This document shows, piece by piece, positions 1,041-18,049 of a DNA stretch of 51,678 nucleotides. Position 1 is the stretch's first letter. Every line of letters begins with the position of its first letter. This stretch comes from a virus. Its lineage: Duplodnaviria > Caudoviricetes. The position numbers and the translations under genes were made by a program. Where the stretch lies: IMG/VR virus record IMGVR_UViG_3300021062_000021, positions 1 through 51,678 of that record; one strand, 5' to 3'. Under the pieces are notes generated by a model. That model did not search any database, was not told where the DNA came from, and saw only the letters and a program-made list of their open reading frames with translations.

Positions 1041-1113
1041 TGCCCCCGGCAGGACTCGAACCTGCATTTGTCTCCTTAGAACGGAGCTGCCGTTCCAGTT
1101 CGGCCACGGGGGC
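1041..1113 (-). tRNA. tRNA-Arg(TCT), no encoded CCA
   Basis: Cloverleaf GCCCCCG/CGGGGGC, D arm GCCG/CGGC, anticodon loop GTTCTAA, T arm GCAGG-TTCGAGT-CCTGC. Confidence 0.88.
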
Positions 1114-3572: not shown

Positions 3573-3839
3573 CTAAGAACTCTGTACTTCCTCTTTGGCC
3601 GTGAAGACCGGGTGGGACTCAACGAACACGGTGTACTTCCGCGTCTTCCCATCCAGGTCGATCACGAAGACTTCGCAGTCGGAGCAGTAGTCGAAGTTGC
3701 CGTGATTCCGCTCGACGAACTTCTCCGCCGCATCGCCAGCGTCGTAAGCCTCGACAGTCGTGGGATCGTCCCTCCCGTTCCACCCTTCCGTCCAGACCTT
3801 GAATGCCGCGCTCATACTGTGGCCTTTCTTATTGGTCAT
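3573..3839 (-). CDS. Hypothetical protein
   Basis: Operon ORF coupled to the methyltransferase stop. Confidence 0.6.
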   Translation of the reverse strand: MTNKKGHSMSAAFKVWTEGWNGRDDPTTVEAYDAGDAAEKFVERNHGNFDYCSDCEVFVIDLDGKTRKYTVFVESHPVFTAKEEVQSS

Positions 3840-10275: not shown

Positions 10276-10442
10276 GGCTCACCTCCTGCGAGGCGAAGTA
10301 ATCGGCCTCCTGCTTGCAGATGTCGCAGTAGTCGATGTGCTCGACGTTGCCGCGACCGTACTTCACCATGAAGCCACACCAGCGGCAGATGACCATCGGA
10401 GGCTCGATCCAGGTCTCGAGCGGGGGGGTAGCGGGGGTGAGG

Positions 10443-10637
10443 TTATCCACGGAGCACCCCCTGGATTTCCTGAATGATGCGGGTGATCCGAGGATCAGCC
10501 GGTAGGTGAAGGAGATCATTCTTGACCTCCCAGAGAGCCTTCCGATACCTCGCCAGCTCCGAGATCAAAATGGAATTCGCGACATCGCTTGCGGGGATCT
10601 CCTTCCCGCAGGCCTCGCACTTCGCCAGCGCCGACAT
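10443..10637 (-). CDS. Zn-finger hypothetical protein
   Basis: AGGAGG RBS; CEAC; RYRKALWEV. Confidence 0.65.
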   Translation of the reverse strand: MSALAKCEACGKEIPASDVANSILISELARYRKALWEVKNDLLHLPADPRITRIIQEIQGVLRG

Positions 10638-10694
10638 CCACCCTCCTGCGGCGCGTCAGGCCCTTTAAAACCGATTAAGGGGCGTGACGAGCCT

Positions 10695-10805
10695 AAAATA
10701 AAAGCCCGCTGTTGCCTACAGACACCGCGCCCTGTGGCATGTGATGAGCAGCCGAAGACACGGCGGCTGCAGGCACCATCGGGCTTCCAAATCGGCTGCT
10801 CATCT
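10695..10805 (-). promoter_or_regulatory. Attenuator-like leader with two interleaved inverted repeats and a U-tract
   Basis: GATGAGCAGCCGA(10744)/TCGGCTGCTCATC(10792) interleaved with AAGCCCG..TGCCT.CAG(10702)/CTG.AGGCA..CGGGCTT(10768). Confidence 0.6.
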
Positions 10806-10811
10806 AACCGG

Positions 10812-10839
10812 AGTATACGACGCTCAAATCCAAATGCAA
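10812..10839 (-). promoter_or_regulatory. Leftward sigma70-type early promoter
   Basis: TTGCAT-16 nt-TATACT on the minus strand. Confidence 0.65.
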
Positions 10840-10932
10840 GGGAAAATCGTATTCGCTTGTGAACATTACACTTCTGAAATATTTGGACAAGCGTACTAAA
10901 AAAGATAAAACGCTGTTCAACGAAGTTGCGCG

Positions 10933-10962
10933 AGTACCCATACGTGTTTGATTATGGGTACG
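10933..10962. other. dif/loxP-like tyrosine-recombinase core site (attP or dimer-resolution site)
   Basis: AGTACCCATAC-GTGTTTGA-TTATGGGTACG: 11-bp inverted arms with an 8-bp asymmetric spacer, upstream of the recombinase. Confidence 0.65.
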
Positions 10963-11137
10963 AATCCGCTTGACGCCCGGGGACAGCGTGGGGTAAGAGA
11001 AGCGTTGCAGAGGTAGTATTCAAGTCACGCCGCTCCCTCCCGCTACGTGGGGAGGGTATATGACCCGACATGTCATCCCTCTCCTGTTCAATTCTACGTA
11101 GACCGGAGAGGGGTGGGGGACAGGGGAGGTAGGGCCC

Positions 11138-12052
11138 CTGTCGTCCCTGGTCGAGCTCCGCAAAGTTGCGGAAGAGTTTCTGGGAAGTCTGCTCGTCCAG
11201 GGATATTCTCGCGTCACCGTCTGGAATTACCGAAAGTACATTGAGAATTTCACGCTGCATCTCAGCACCGAAGGCCGAGATCTCAACCAGGTCGATCATG
11301 GCTGTCTGCTTCGCTGGATGCAGGCGATTCGGTTAAAAGGAGTCGGGGAGACATCGCTTCAGGGAAACAAGTCCGCAGTCTCGAGTTGGTACGAATGGCT
11401 TGTTAGGATTGGTCGCGTCGACCGCAATCCCATCAAGATGCTTGCCCCCATTAAGCTCAAGAAGACCATCCCGAAGCCGATCCCCGAAGAAGAGACCGCA
11501 AGCCTCCTGTCGAAGGCCGGCGAAGTGGAGTCGAAAGAGACGCTGAGAAACGTCGCCATCATGGAGCTTCTCTACTCGACGGGGCTCCGACGTGCAGAAC
11601 TGTGCGCTCTCGATCTATCCGATTTGAAGCTCGAAAGCGAGACACCTCATATCCTGGTCCGGTTGGCAAAGGGGAACCGCGAGGCTATCGCTCTCGTCAC
11701 CGAGAAGGCAAAGGCCGCGATTAAAGCTTATCTCCCGTGGCGGGATAGGGTCTGCCGTCGCACGGAGCGCCCGATGACCTTCCAGGCGTTATTCGTGACG
11801 AAGAAAGGCGCCCGAATGACCGGGGGCGACGTCTACCGCATGGTTCGAAAGCTGGCCGAAAAACTCCTGGGCCACAAAGTCACCCCTCACCAGTTCAGGC
11901 ACAGCTTCGGTACGGATCTCCTTAATCATGGCGTGGACCTCATGAGCATCAAGGAGCTCATGCGCCATGCGACACTCTCGAGCACGGAGAAGTATTTAGC
12001 CGTATCAAAAGAGCGCCTCAAGGCTCAGTTCATGCGTCATCCCAGAGCTTGA
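11138..12052 (+). CDS. XerC/XerD-like tyrosine recombinase (probable CTG start)
   Basis: GLRRAEL, KG, HQFRHSF, MRH..LSSTEKY and terminal HPRA; the frame stays open upstream of 11318 and encodes the N-terminal core-binding domain (GYSRVTVWNY). Confidence 0.92.
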   Translation: MSSLVELRKVAEEFLGSLLVQGYSRVTVWNYRKYIENFTLHLSTEGRDLNQVDHGCLLRWMQAIRLKGVGETSLQGNKSAVSSWYEWLVRIGRVDRNPIKMLAPIKLKKTIPKPIPEEETASLLSKAGEVESKETLRNVAIMELLYSTGLRRAELCALDLSDLKLESETPHILVRLAKGNREAIALVTEKAKAAIKAYLPWRDRVCRRTERPMTFQALFVTKKGARMTGGDVYRMVRKLAEKLLGHKVTPHQFRHSFGTDLLNHGVDLMSIKELMRHATLSSTEKYLAVSKERLKAQFMRHPRA

Positions 12053-12345
12053 GTACCAGAGATATGCCAACGAACCTTATTGACAGCCCTTGTTACCTGT
12101 TCAAGATGGTCAGGATTTACGCACCCCTTGTTGCAACAGATATGGTCGATCATCATGTGCGGCATAATTGGCCCAATGAATGCCAAGTAACTGAACCTAT
12201 GGGCAGTCGTAGAGATCCCACGGTAGTGGGCGGATCCATAGCCGTTTCGCTGAATGGTCTTCCAGACCCAGCATCCATCAGGCTGTGGAGTAGAGCTCTC
12301 TCTCACAAAGTCCCTCATCCCGTCTTGTAGACATCTCTGAATCAT
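12037..12345 (-). CDS. HNH endonuclease (phage HNH_3 type)
   Basis: CWVW..NGYG..AHRFSY..G.I..IDHICCNKGCVNPDHL. Confidence 0.9.
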   Translation of the reverse strand: MIQRCLQDGMRDFVRESSTPQPDGCWVWKTIQRNGYGSAHYRGISTTAHRFSYLAFIGPIMPHMMIDHICCNKGCVNPDHLEQVTRAVNKVRWHISGTQALG

Positions 12346-12372
12346 ATGTTCTTTCTGTAATGTGATTCCCTA

Positions 12373-12790
12373 GACTCCGCTTCAGGTATGAGAGATGTTC
12401 TTCTTGCGTCTCTGAATCGCTATCGGGTGTGAGAGACACTCTCTTTGAGCCTAGGGCGGGGGTTAGGCGTCAGCCGTCCTTGCTCTCGGAGAGTGCCTTT
12501 CATACCCGAAGCGAGTCCGTACGGTGAAGGGTCTGGGGCAGGCACATAGGCCCGTCTAATTGGGCTCCCAGGTCTCCAGAGACGTCTTCCCGAGATCCTC
12601 GTAAGCTGGCTGCTTCTTGAGGGGCTTTGCGTGGGTGGCGGCTTCGCCGGCCTGACGCTCGGGCTTTGGGTAGAGCATCTCCGGTGGGCCGGTGGCTATC
12701 TCTGCTGAAGGGTATTCTATCCTGAACTCTCAGCGTGTCAAGGCTTTCTGAACGCCAGACATCACGCCAAGCTCAAGAGCCCAAAAGCGA
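12373..12790 (+). ncRNA. Putative large structured ncRNA (~420 nt)
   Basis: No ORF; many nested long-range helices with G-U pairs mostly on the + strand. Confidence 0.6.
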
Positions 12791-12849
12791 CACGGCAAAA
12801 AAGAGTAGCAATTTCGGAATTATCGCTGATTGTTTCAACCCTCTCTCCA

Positions 12850-12876
12850 GATCCCCCAGGGCAATCCGGGGGATCC
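12850..12876. terminator. GC-rich hairpin
   Basis: GATCCCCC / GGGGGATC just downstream of the 12882 stop. Confidence 0.45.
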
Positions 12877-12881
12877 CCTGC

Positions 12882-13430
12882 CTACATCTCAGGGTAGTCG
12901 TGTGCTCCAACGTAGCTATGCGTAATGACAGGATTCACGGTTGGGAATACACATCTCATGCTTTTTTCGTTCCAGCAGTAGGATGGGGGAAGGTGATAGA
13001 TATGCGCATTCCGCATCGAAGAAAGCGCTTGCCGGAAATTTATTGAATCGTCTTCTCTGGTAGGGTTGTCAGCTACGATCTTCGCCCACGTCTCTGCGTA
13101 GCGCCGACCACGCTTCCCATTGAACCAGAGCGTACCGCCGATCGGGACTTGCGGACTATGGAAGAACGCGGCCATGTCAGCGTCAATGGACTCAAAGAGA
13201 GATGGATATTCCAGGTATCGTGTGTCAGCATCCTGCCACAGTATCGGCTCGTTGTACTTGTCGATACACTCAAGCACAAAGGCAGATTTTTGATTACAGT
13301 TTCGCCACCAGCTTCCTAGGTCTGGACGGGGTGAGATTGCGCATCTTAACCCTACTCTTTCAGCAGACGCTTTTAGCGCCTCTGCATTGTCTTGGTATTT
13401 CTTGCTCGTATAGAAGCTGACAACGATCAC
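12882..13430 (-). CDS. Nucleotide-diphospho-sugar transferase (GT-A), paralog of 19176-19865
   Basis: VVSFYT..Y, K..F, ILWQDAD (DxD), LPPSYCW; probable GTG start. Confidence 0.8.
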   Translation of the reverse strand: MIVVSFYTSKKYQDNAEALKASAERVGLRCAISPRPDLGSWWRNCNQKSAFVLECIDKYNEPILWQDADTRYLEYPSLFESIDADMAAFFHSPQVPIGGTLWFNGKRGRRYAETWAKIVADNPTREDDSINFRQALSSMRNAHIYHLPPSYCWNEKSMRCVFPTVNPVITHSYVGAHDYPEM

Positions 13431-13459
13431 ATTCGAATTGTATTCCTTTCGGCATTGAC

Positions 13460-13488
13460 TTGACAACCGTATTTGGGTGCGGTACCGT
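13460..13488 (+). promoter_or_regulatory. sigma70-type promoter
   Basis: TTGACA-17-TACCGT. Confidence 0.55.
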
Positions 13489-13527
13489 TCTCATTACCTG
13501 GAGCCCGGGGGACAGAAGGAGGGCTCT

Positions 13528-13881
13528 ATGCGTCAACAAAAAACCCCACACCAACAGATGGCGGCCGGCTTCTGGGTCACTTGCGGCGTGCTAGTCGCTC
13601 TAAGTATAGCCTTCGCGTTATACCAGACGAGCAGTGGGAATGCAACGCCTCATACTGTTTACTACCCAAGTGTGAGCAAAGCAAACGCAGAGGCCAAGCG
13701 AGAATTCAAGGCATGGAGTGGTATCGGATTTCTTCATTACCACTTTGACAAGAGATGCACTGTTCTTGAGAAAATAGGACCGGATTTCGTCAGCAAGGGA
13801 GTGGCATTTGGGAAACCAAAAAGACAGCAATTCGACGGGATGGATATGGAGCCATGCGAAATATGCGTCGGTAGAAAATAA
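13528..13881 (+). CDS. Membrane-anchored protein with C-terminal YH...C / PCEIC Zn site (moron-like)
   Basis: AGGAGG RBS; TM segment; own promoter, with a hairpin after the stop. Confidence 0.65.
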   Translation: MRQQKTPHQQMAAGFWVTCGVLVALSIAFALYQTSSGNATPHTVYYPSVSKANAEAKREFKAWSGIGFLHYHFDKRCTVLEKIGPDFVSKGVAFGKPKRQQFDGMDMEPCEICVGRK

Positions 13882-17575: not shown

Positions 17576-17770
17576 ATGCCCGACACTTTCAAAATCGGCG
17601 GCATCGAGCATCGCAAGGGCGAGAAGTGCAAGTCCTGCTTCAATGGCTTCCCGTACAACTGCACTCGCTGTGATGGGTATATCCATGGCCATCAACTTCA
17701 ACATGGCGCTTCCATGGCCGTCGAAAGCGCTTGCGATATTTGTGGCGAGAAGTGGGCTCAAAAGGGTTGA
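17576..17770 (+). CDS. Small Zn-finger protein
   Basis: CKSC, CTRC, CDIC. Confidence 0.6.
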   Translation: MPDTFKIGGIEHRKGEKCKSCFNGFPYNCTRCDGYIHGHQLQHGASMAVESACDICGEKWAQKG

Positions 17771-17795
17771 CAATTCGCATTTGTGCGAATAGGAT
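17767..17795 (+). promoter_or_regulatory. Strong sigma70 promoter with a palindromic operator in the spacer
   Basis: TTGACA-17-TAGGAT; ATTCGCA-TTTG-TGCGAAT. Confidence 0.75.
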
Positions 17796-17826
17796 TCTTT
17801 AAGTAACTGAACGTTCTTTCACGACA

Positions 17827-17923
17827 CTCGCCCCGGCTGATCCCCGGGTTGAGAATACTGACGCGCCAATAATAGCGGCATTCGGGTGCCCGACACATCC
17901 GAGTGCCGCTTTTTTATTGGTGC
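17827..17923 (+). terminator. Leader RNA: CTGATCC-loop hairpin plus long intrinsic-terminator hairpin
   Basis: CTCGCCCCGG/CCGGGTTGAG; AGCGGCATTCGGGTG/CATCCGAGTGCCGCT followed by a T-tract. Confidence 0.7.
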
Positions 17924-18049
17924 AGCGAGGACGGAGGACGAGCACCATGGCCAGAGGCGCGGCACACGAAGCGTCAAGTAAGACTCGTCCTCGTATTTGC
18001 CGCCTCTGCCTCGCCTCTGTTCACGGTGCTTGAGACTTCAGGAGGATAG

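Follow-up and report, generated by a model that had tools for sequence, protein, structure and literature searches.

A tailed phage found in soil metagenomes carries, beside the place where its integrase gene and an HNH endonuclease gene converge, a non-coding gap with extensive base pairing, and the question raised by this locus is what that pairing serves. The original prediction was a single, densely base-paired element of about 420 nt (12373–12790), read either as a large non-coding RNA, such as a ribozyme or scaffold, or as a ColE1 RNAII-like primer that would define an origin. The window analyzed here is the whole IMG/VR virus record of 51,678 bases, which has a completeness rating of 100%, and near-identical copies of the phage record are carried by two soil metagenome runs, from which it may stem.

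Genome setting and the non-coding gap

Minus-strand genes predominate up to about 11.3 kb, the genes of the left arm including a methyltransferase, RusA and a RecE-like exonuclease, and the packaging and structural genes lie on the plus strand from 13.5 kb on. Between the two arms, the order is integrase gene (+), HNH gene (−), a gap of 536 nt and a gene for a 194-aa protein (−), as follows:

11102–12052, plus strand: XerC/D-like tyrosine integrase (Pfam Phage_integrase, 4e-32), convergent with the HNH gene
12037–12345, minus strand: HNH endonuclease gene, 102 aa, nuclease core only (Pfam HNH_3, 5.1e-11)
12346–12881: non-coding gap of 536 nt, between the HNH gene (12345 to 12037, minus strand) and the 194-aa ORF (13466 to 12882, minus strand)
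12849–12876, minus strand: short G+C-rich hairpin just past the stop of the 194-aa gene
12882–13466, minus strand: conserved 194-aa gene, right border of the gap, with 28 relatives at 45–99% identity

The stretch had been described as free of open reading frames, and this holds, since all ORFs contained in the gap (ATG, GTG or TTG start) have at most 41 aa. The longest stop-to-stop frame reaches 91 aa and has no relative among proteins of 50–160 aa; the idea of a decayed gene was rejected on the search of that single frame. No replication initiator, helicase or primase and no Rep or relaxase gene was found among the 39 ORFs scanned against PHROGs, a set that leaves most of the right arm outside. 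Elsewhere in the window, a tRNA-Arg gene (anticodon TCT; 1041–1113, minus strand) is the sole Rfam match, and the gap after the portal gene (17767–18040) contains a 10-of-12 promoter-like site, followed by very stable hairpins (z to −6.1) and a T-run.

A stable hairpin of about 190 nt

The whole gap folds better than shuffled sequence (z −3.99 on the plus strand and −3.43 on the minus strand, 0 of 100 shuffles as good on each). Because this signal comes from one part of the gap, the finding is a hairpin of about 190 nt, not a domain of 420 nt. A strongly structured non-coding element beside the HNH and recombinase genes is real, and its main hairpin favors the plus strand, but the structure beyond chance spans about 190 nt, or about 260 nt when an outer helix described below is counted, and does not form one 420-nt element. 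The predicted stability above shuffled controls was likewise found for 12360–12548, but not for 12549–12800, where three of the helices named in the original prediction lie and where folding is at chance level (plus strand: z −0.94, 28 of 200 shuffles as good; minus strand: z −1.83, 8 of 200). The features concerned are:

12360–12548, both strands, stabler on the plus strand: long imperfect hairpin of about 190 nt, found by folding against shuffles
12382–12411 and 12423–12452: duplicated 5′ arm of the hairpin, direct copies that are 70% identical (repeat D1)

As plus-strand RNA, the hairpin reaches −101.1 kcal/mol (z −7.28, 0 of 200 dinucleotide shuffles as good), while as minus-strand RNA it reaches −71.1 kcal/mol (z −4.63) and as plus-strand single-stranded DNA its z-score is −5.47, each against 200 dinucleotide shuffles. 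It occurs as a single copy in the phage, and when both genome strands were scanned in full with RNALfold, it had the best z-score (−8.36) among 575 local folds with z ≤ −3. The plus-strand fold contains 9 G-U pairs among 72 and a single A-C mismatch, compared with 1 G-U pair among 65 in the minus-strand fold (9 versus 1, two-sided binomial p about 0.02), which confirms for the hairpin the earlier claim that G-U pairs favor the plus strand. As a control for this strand measure, a long-stem terminator at about 10704–10790 is stabler on the minus strand, the strand bearing its T-run. Strand-biased mutation, instead of selection, could be an alternative cause of the G-U asymmetry.

The hairpin contains two inverted repeats, I1 (28 nt, 79%) and I2 (17 nt, 88%), and two mutually exclusive folds are available to it, since either copy of the duplicated 5′ arm can pair with 12497–12509. 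The motif GGTRTGARAG occurs exactly three times in the window, every copy lying within the hairpin, and with one mismatch allowed its genome-wide count is at chance level. No intrinsic terminator was flagged at 12360–12548 on either strand, and the hairpin flanks carry no T-run. Regarded simply as complementarity, six of the seven nested or crossing helices originally named pair fully base by base, with 0–2 G-T pairs each, and the seventh (22 nt against 21 nt) pairs only with a bulge.

A promoter-like site and a predicted outer helix at the HNH start

The original prediction missed a strong minus-strand promoter-like site in the gap, which points at the HNH gene. This site and the features between it and the HNH start are:

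12714–12741, minus strand: sigma-70-type promoter-like site, TTGACA-16 nt-TAGAAT, 11/12 match, reading leftwards to the hairpin and the HNH gene
12588–12707, minus strand: 5′ part of the putative HNH leader, folding like shuffles; the second domain originally proposed lay here and rightwards
12575–12587: outer helix, strand a, pairing with 12329–12341 and closing the hairpin domain
12329–12341: outer helix, strand a′, corresponding to codons 2–6 of the HNH gene

The site at 12741–12714 is the only sigma-70 match of at least 11/12 on either strand of the genome, scored with a consensus that may not be the host’s, and a mean of 0.13 such sites is expected from 30 mononucleotide shuffles. Three of the four sites with at least 10/12 lie in intergenic gaps and face the next gene. 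In a scan for the sigma-70 type only, no other site of at least 9/12 was found between 12714 and 12345, and none on the plus strand in 10300–13600. Because the strong minus-strand site points at the HNH gene, the region is probably also transcribed as HNH leader, and a transcript from this site would carry a leader of about 360 nt, including the hairpin, into the HNH gene. Within this putative leader, a 40-aa ORF (12678 to 12556) has a GGAG abutting its ATG.

In the predicted fold of the minus-strand RNA from 12707 to 12290, an outer helix of 13 pairs forms, 2 of them G-U, with an unpaired probability of at most 0.10. It would cover positions +5 to +17 of the HNH message with a pairing probability of about 1, and the AUG, together with the preceding purine-rich Shine-Dalgarno stretch, is predicted to be unpaired between the outer helix and the hairpin base. 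Including this helix, the paired rod extends over 12329–12587. The duplex between leader and start region has −25.9 kcal/mol, compared with −14.9 ± 2.4 in 1000 dinucleotide shuffles (p 0.001); p rises to 0.012 when the entire leader is shuffled, and the plus-strand equivalent of the duplex has −23.2 kcal/mol. A crossing 9-bp pairing, 12406–12414 with 12577–12585, had been proposed as a pseudoknot or alternative fold; it exists, but 12575–12587 pairs better with 12329–12341 inside the HNH gene. The segment 12577–12585 has two possible partners because a 10-nt repeat at 12334–12343 recurs at 12409–12418.

Distribution of the hairpin and a variant from a second soil study

No match to the gap was found in Rfam 15 (4227 models, including group I and II introns, 6S, HEARO, GOLLD, ROOL, tRNA and tmRNA). 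The best match in 12200–13000 at E ≤ 10 was a vertebrate lncRNA model inside the HNH gene, with 24.5 bits against a gathering score of 38. Judged by these models, the element lies outside every described RNA family tested.

Searches by blastn with the gap returned nothing from INPHARED phages or PLSDB plasmids. A search for one exact 17-mer was negative in IMG/VR, where homologues were to be collected, and so was a search for one exact 20-mer in GTDB genomes. The large hairpin was absent from 21 loci of relatives (TerL and 194-aa-gene loci) searched by blastn and tblastx, and from the whole records of five related phages (best E 0.15). Phages with a 57–82% identical terminase share structural genes with this phage and nothing from 10–14 kb, and none of 10 loci of the 194-aa gene family, taken from IMG/VR, JGI metagenomes and GTDB genomes, contains the large hairpin. 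A two-arm pattern matched five IMG/VR loci, which were rejected as chance matches because they are nearly identical to one another (one single-base difference among themselves in an aligned 600-nt stretch) and unrelated to the window between and around both 10-mers.

A variant, X3, was found in a third soil run from another study, as a contig of 240 nt with a depth of 2.3 that covers 12353–12607. Compared with the window, 11 letters differ and 24 are deleted. All 24 deletions and three of the five located substitutions fall in 12445–12493, the hairpin tip; the remaining six substitutions have no assigned position and are probably near the contig ends. The hairpin shape has therefore been kept while the tip sequence was exchanged. 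With the located changes applied by coordinates, the variant forms a 165-nt hairpin of the same architecture with −83.8 kcal/mol, and its tip is a shorter palindrome that is almost perfectly paired. The palindromic tip of this one variant is equally compatible with an origin at the DNA level and at the RNA level. In X3, the stop of the 40-aa leader ORF is also altered, by differences at 12558 and 12559.

The genes around the hairpin

The HNH gene overlaps the 3′ end of the integrase gene by 16 nt. PHROG HNH endonuclease families match it down to 1.6e-24, with their profiles covered only in part, and these matches, together with HNH_3 and the position of the gene between other genes, characterize it as a free-standing homing-type nuclease. 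The protein stops just past the conserved core, and three relatives extend 35–90 aa further; the relatives are 80–376 aa long, and the 102-aa gene is the second-shortest in the family sample. This sample comprised 75 loci, 74 of which have an HNH ORF. No gap-like DNA was found by blastn at any of the 75 loci, and in the 450 nt upstream of the 74 ORFs a local fold with z ≤ −6 was present at one locus and one with z ≤ −7 at none (0/74), so a conserved cassette of HNH gene and hairpin was rejected. The HNH family occupies many differing contexts: an integrase-like ORF is found within 2 kb in at least 5 of the 74 loci by an ad hoc profile, with which a constant place beside an integrase was also rejected, and an integrase lies directly downstream in 4 of the 74.

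Two further candidates involving HNH genes were discarded. For an HNH-bearing group I intron, no intron model matched, and the flanks are the complete 194-aa gene and the opposite-strand integrase gene. The omega-RNA of IscB and IsrB (HEARO) is a structured RNA upstream of a RuvC-containing nuclease of 350–500 aa; here the protein has only 102 aa with HNH_3 alone, and there is no Rfam match.

The integrase frame is open from 11102, with no ATG, GTG or TTG before 11318, and the integrase of a relative locus (L018) aligns from 11228 on in the same frame, with a XerC/D-like match that spans both domains. Judged from this alignment, the true integrase start is to be placed upstream of the listed ATG at 11318; it may use a rare codon, or the N-terminus may be damaged, as no common start codon precedes 11318. 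The 115-aa minus-strand ORF at 10952–11299 is probably spurious. Used as an IMG/VR query, the integrase found no relative. The second non-coding stretch, upstream of the integrase (10640–10950), contains the long-stem hairpin and T-run terminator on the minus strand at about 10704–10790, and 11030–11225, over the integrase 5′ end, is strongly folded (z −3.8 on the plus and −4.2 on the minus strand).

No tRNA or tmRNA fragment that would mark attP was found in 12200–13000 or 10400–11400 at E ≤ 10, nor by ARAGORN. The positive control for this search was a relative locus (L002, on the same record as L034), where a tmRNA fragment at 3601–3683 scores 61.4 bits, above the gathering score. This fragment lies about 270 nt upstream of an HNH gene, with an integrase directly after, and the locus looks like an attP–HNH–integrase arrangement.

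The 194-aa protein has no Pfam or PHROG family, and a profile search of PDB sequences was empty. D79 and D81, in a D-A-D context, are invariant in the family alignment, and a nucleotide-sugar transferase can be offered as a guess only. Close relatives of the protein (P0002–P0010, 65–82% identity), compared as proteins only, come from contigs of 1.2 to 52 kb. In relatives, the gene follows a tail-fibre-like gene and is sometimes duplicated (L018–L020). The short hairpin at 12849–12876 has no T-run directly after it and was unflagged by the terminator scan; it is probably the 3′ end or terminator structure of the 194-aa mRNA, separate from the large hairpin. The segment 12828–12879 is 76% identical over 55 nt (E 1e-4) to the same position after the homologous gene of L014, and stable local folds of 50–150 nt begin 6 to about 80 nt past the homologous gene in 5 of 10 relative loci (L013, L017, L018, L019 and L020). 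Past its homologous gene, L014 also has an 11-of-12 promoter-like site (444–472) that points back into that gene, and a stable 92-nt hairpin (594–685, RNALfold z −5.9) just before the likely ATG of the next ORF; for this ORF as an HNH nuclease there is no Pfam support.

A proposed control hairpin in the HNH leader

The hairpin most likely acts as a local RNA control structure. The reading ranked first, tentatively and with a probability of roughly 0.3, is that the gap is a composite regulatory spacer whose hairpin acts in cis at the RNA level, within the 5′ leader of the HNH transcript. It starts from three direct observations: a hairpin of high stability, a promoter-like site, and more complementarity between leader and start region than in shuffles. 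The 194-aa gene would end in its own small hairpin (12876–12849), and the sigma-70-type promoter at 12741–12714 would start a minus-strand transcript near 12707, so that about 360 nt of leader precede the HNH gene. The hairpin, read as 12548–12360, may then act as a clamp that brings 12587–12575 beside HNH codons 2–6 (12341–12329). With the start codon in a short loop between two strong helices, ribosome loading on the nuclease gene would be held down, and an enzyme such as RNase III could lift the block of the start region by cutting the long duplex.

Such control has published precedents. In the passages of PMC2988022 on this subject, several homing endonuclease genes of T-even phages (I-TevI, segB and mobE) are held down by stable RNA structures at their start, and in another of them, seg43(25) of Aeromonas phage 25, a very stable hairpin lies just upstream of an exposed ribosome binding site. 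RNase III cleavage that frees an occluded ribosome binding site is described in part of PMC5371410. The present locus resembles the T-even systems, as far as these passages describe them, in a stable RNA structure beside the start of a free-standing nuclease gene, with a promoter upstream, here a promoter-like site. It differs in several respects. In the known systems, short structures lie over the ribosome binding site, whereas here the structure has about 190 nt and the predicted block lies at +5 to +17, with Shine-Dalgarno region and AUG exposed. The T-even type includes a second promoter, within the structure, whose transcripts can be translated, whereas here no sigma-70-like site of at least 9/12 lies between 12714 and 12345. 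Moreover, the hairpin here favors the opposite strand, and there is no sequence relationship.

Besides these precedents, the genome’s only 11/12 sigma-70 match lies upstream of the HNH gene on its strand, the duplex between leader and start region exceeds that of shuffles (p 0.001), with a small advantage for the minus strand, the 13 pairs over +5 to +17 are predicted to form with a probability of about 1, and the hairpin is far beyond chance on the minus strand too (z −4.63). On the other hand, the hairpin favors the plus strand (9 versus 1 G-U pairs, 30 kcal/mol), whereas selection on a minus-strand RNA should give the reverse; the Shine-Dalgarno region and AUG are predicted to be unpaired; 190 nt is much bigger than the known occluding structures; the promoter consensus is assumed and may not be the host’s; and the HNH relatives have no such leader (0/74 with z ≤ −7, and 0/75 loci resembling the gap).

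Alternative readings of the hairpin

The strand preference of the hairpin argues for a possible reading that ranks a close second, in which the same hairpin works on the plus strand, serving the integrase mRNA as its 3′ trailer or opposing the HNH leader as an antisense RNA. It would form an end or an RNase III-sensitive structure setting the stability of integrase mRNA, and the HNH gene would be a later insertion between the integrase gene and the hairpin. The physical evidence for the hairpin itself is better here than for the HNH leader: the fold is 30 kcal/mol better on the plus strand (z −7.28 against −4.63), G-U pairs stand at 9 to 1 (binomial p about 0.02), and the control terminator at about 10704–10790 is stabler on its T-run strand. 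In addition, the hairpin is the first strong structure past the integrase stop (12052), 308 nt downstream, and the HNH gene is truncated and comes from a family whose varied contexts are as expected of a mobile insertion. Nevertheless, no plus-strand promoter-like site of at least 9/12 was found in 10300–13600, no U-run follows the hairpin on the plus strand, the minus strand gives the slightly better outer helix, and the G-U excess could come from strand-biased mutation.

The model for this trailer is phage lambda, in which the sib/tI hairpin sets the stability of the int mRNA; this retroregulation of int was reportedly described by Plunkett and Echols in 1989. Like sib/tI, the present hairpin is a strong one downstream of the integrase gene and on the integrase strand, in the non-coding region where attP is expected, with a duplex long enough for RNase III. 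It differs in being several times longer and in having an antisense HNH gene between it and the integrase gene, which is XerC/D-like and not lambda-like. In the lambda system, the stretch from int to the hairpin contains attP, and RNase III cuts read-through transcripts; here no attP was identified. The leader and trailer readings are not exclusive, since the integrase and HNH genes converge and both strands may be transcribed across the hairpin. Overall, hairpins of post-transcriptional control appear to be the closest match in how the element works, though it greatly exceeds the known ones in size and has an unusual two-strand geometry.

The narrow distribution of the hairpin bears on a somewhat doubtful third explanation, that it is a decaying, functionless inverted duplication, produced around the mobile HNH gene and the integrase by template switching or break repair, which has yet to disappear. 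None of the phage relatives examined (five whole records; the TerL and 194-aa-gene loci) contains it, the INPHARED, PLSDB, IMG/VR and GTDB searches did not find it, its arms are only 79–88% complementary, and the palindromic tip of X3 is what template switching would make. Yet no other local fold of the genome is as stable as this hairpin, a second soil study also contains it with a differing tip that still pairs, and neutral decay does not predict the G-U asymmetry. Long palindromes are costly to replicate, and the persistence of this one suggests use.

The X3 variant is also relevant to an unlikely DNA-level function, that of a folded single-stranded or cruciform site, acting as a lagging-strand priming signal like plasmid single-strand origins or as a recombination substrate of the integrase. 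Integron attC, CTX phage attP(+) and plasmid single-strand origins are imperfect palindromes, about 60–300 nt in length, that function in just one of the two strands; the base of the stem is conserved and the tip varies. XerC/D-type or IntI tyrosine recombinases act on two of the three kinds, and in folded recombination sites of this type the core boxes, with the attC motif GTTRRRY, lie at the stem base. The present hairpin is likewise an imperfect, strand-asymmetric palindrome whose lower stem is kept while the tip varies, and it folds well as single-stranded DNA (z −5.47) beside a short integrase, both of whose domains match the XerC/D-like integrase of L018, in a phage for which the 39 PHROG-scanned ORFs gave no replication initiator, helicase or primase. 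However, the replicon is a 51.7-kb tailed dsDNA phage, which is not known to have an obligatory single-stranded stage, and the 39 scanned ORFs include no Rep or relaxase gene. Furthermore, no signature motif of such sites is found at the stem base, GTTRRRY occurring by eye only once (12462–12468), within the apical loop; a tRNA or tmRNA fragment such as marks attP in L002 is also missing. That the hairpin is specifically a folded single-strand recombination site for the adjacent integrase, in the manner of attC or CTX attP(+), would account for the asymmetry of pairing between the strands, the retention of the lower stem and the exchange of the tip, and is very improbable.

The free-standing ribozyme or scaffold RNA, or RNAII-like primer defining an origin, of the original prediction is very improbable: strong plus-strand structure, the lack of a recognized replication protein among the scanned ORFs and a cumulative GC-skew minimum within about 2 kb speak for it, but no Rfam match approached any gathering score, half of the proposed element is no better folded than shuffled sequence, neither a plus-strand promoter nor a terminator was found, related phages that would need the same origin lack the element, and the skew minimum, at about 10–11 kb and away from the element, coincides with the switch point of gene orientation. 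Like ColE1 RNAII/RNAI, the locus is a structured non-coding region of several hundred nucleotides with a G-run; it differs in having no plus-strand promoter, no Rfam match (antisense RNA families included), an unstructured right half and no counterpart in related phages. A ribozyme or scaffold RNA likewise finds no support, as no family matches and the phage’s relatives do not conserve the element. The element lacks the defining features of a group I intron, a HEARO RNA, an intrinsic terminator, a tRNA- or tmRNA-type attP and an RNAII system.

Implications

This is a real and striking structure, but one limited to a single phage lineage, and it settles no open question; it provides no evidence for a new ribozyme or replication origin, and the function of the hairpin is a predicted one. 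It illustrates that even a genome’s most stable fold need not be a conserved RNA gene but can be an accessory feature of one lineage, and that an RNA element and a DNA palindrome cannot be told apart by stability alone when homologues are missing. If the hairpin does control the HNH gene from its leader, a mobile nuclease gene at the junction with an integrase would be controlled by an unusually large RNA clamp. The restraint of homing endonucleases by hairpins, familiar from T4, would then extend to temperate soil phages, and each strand of a single palindrome may serve one of two convergent genes.
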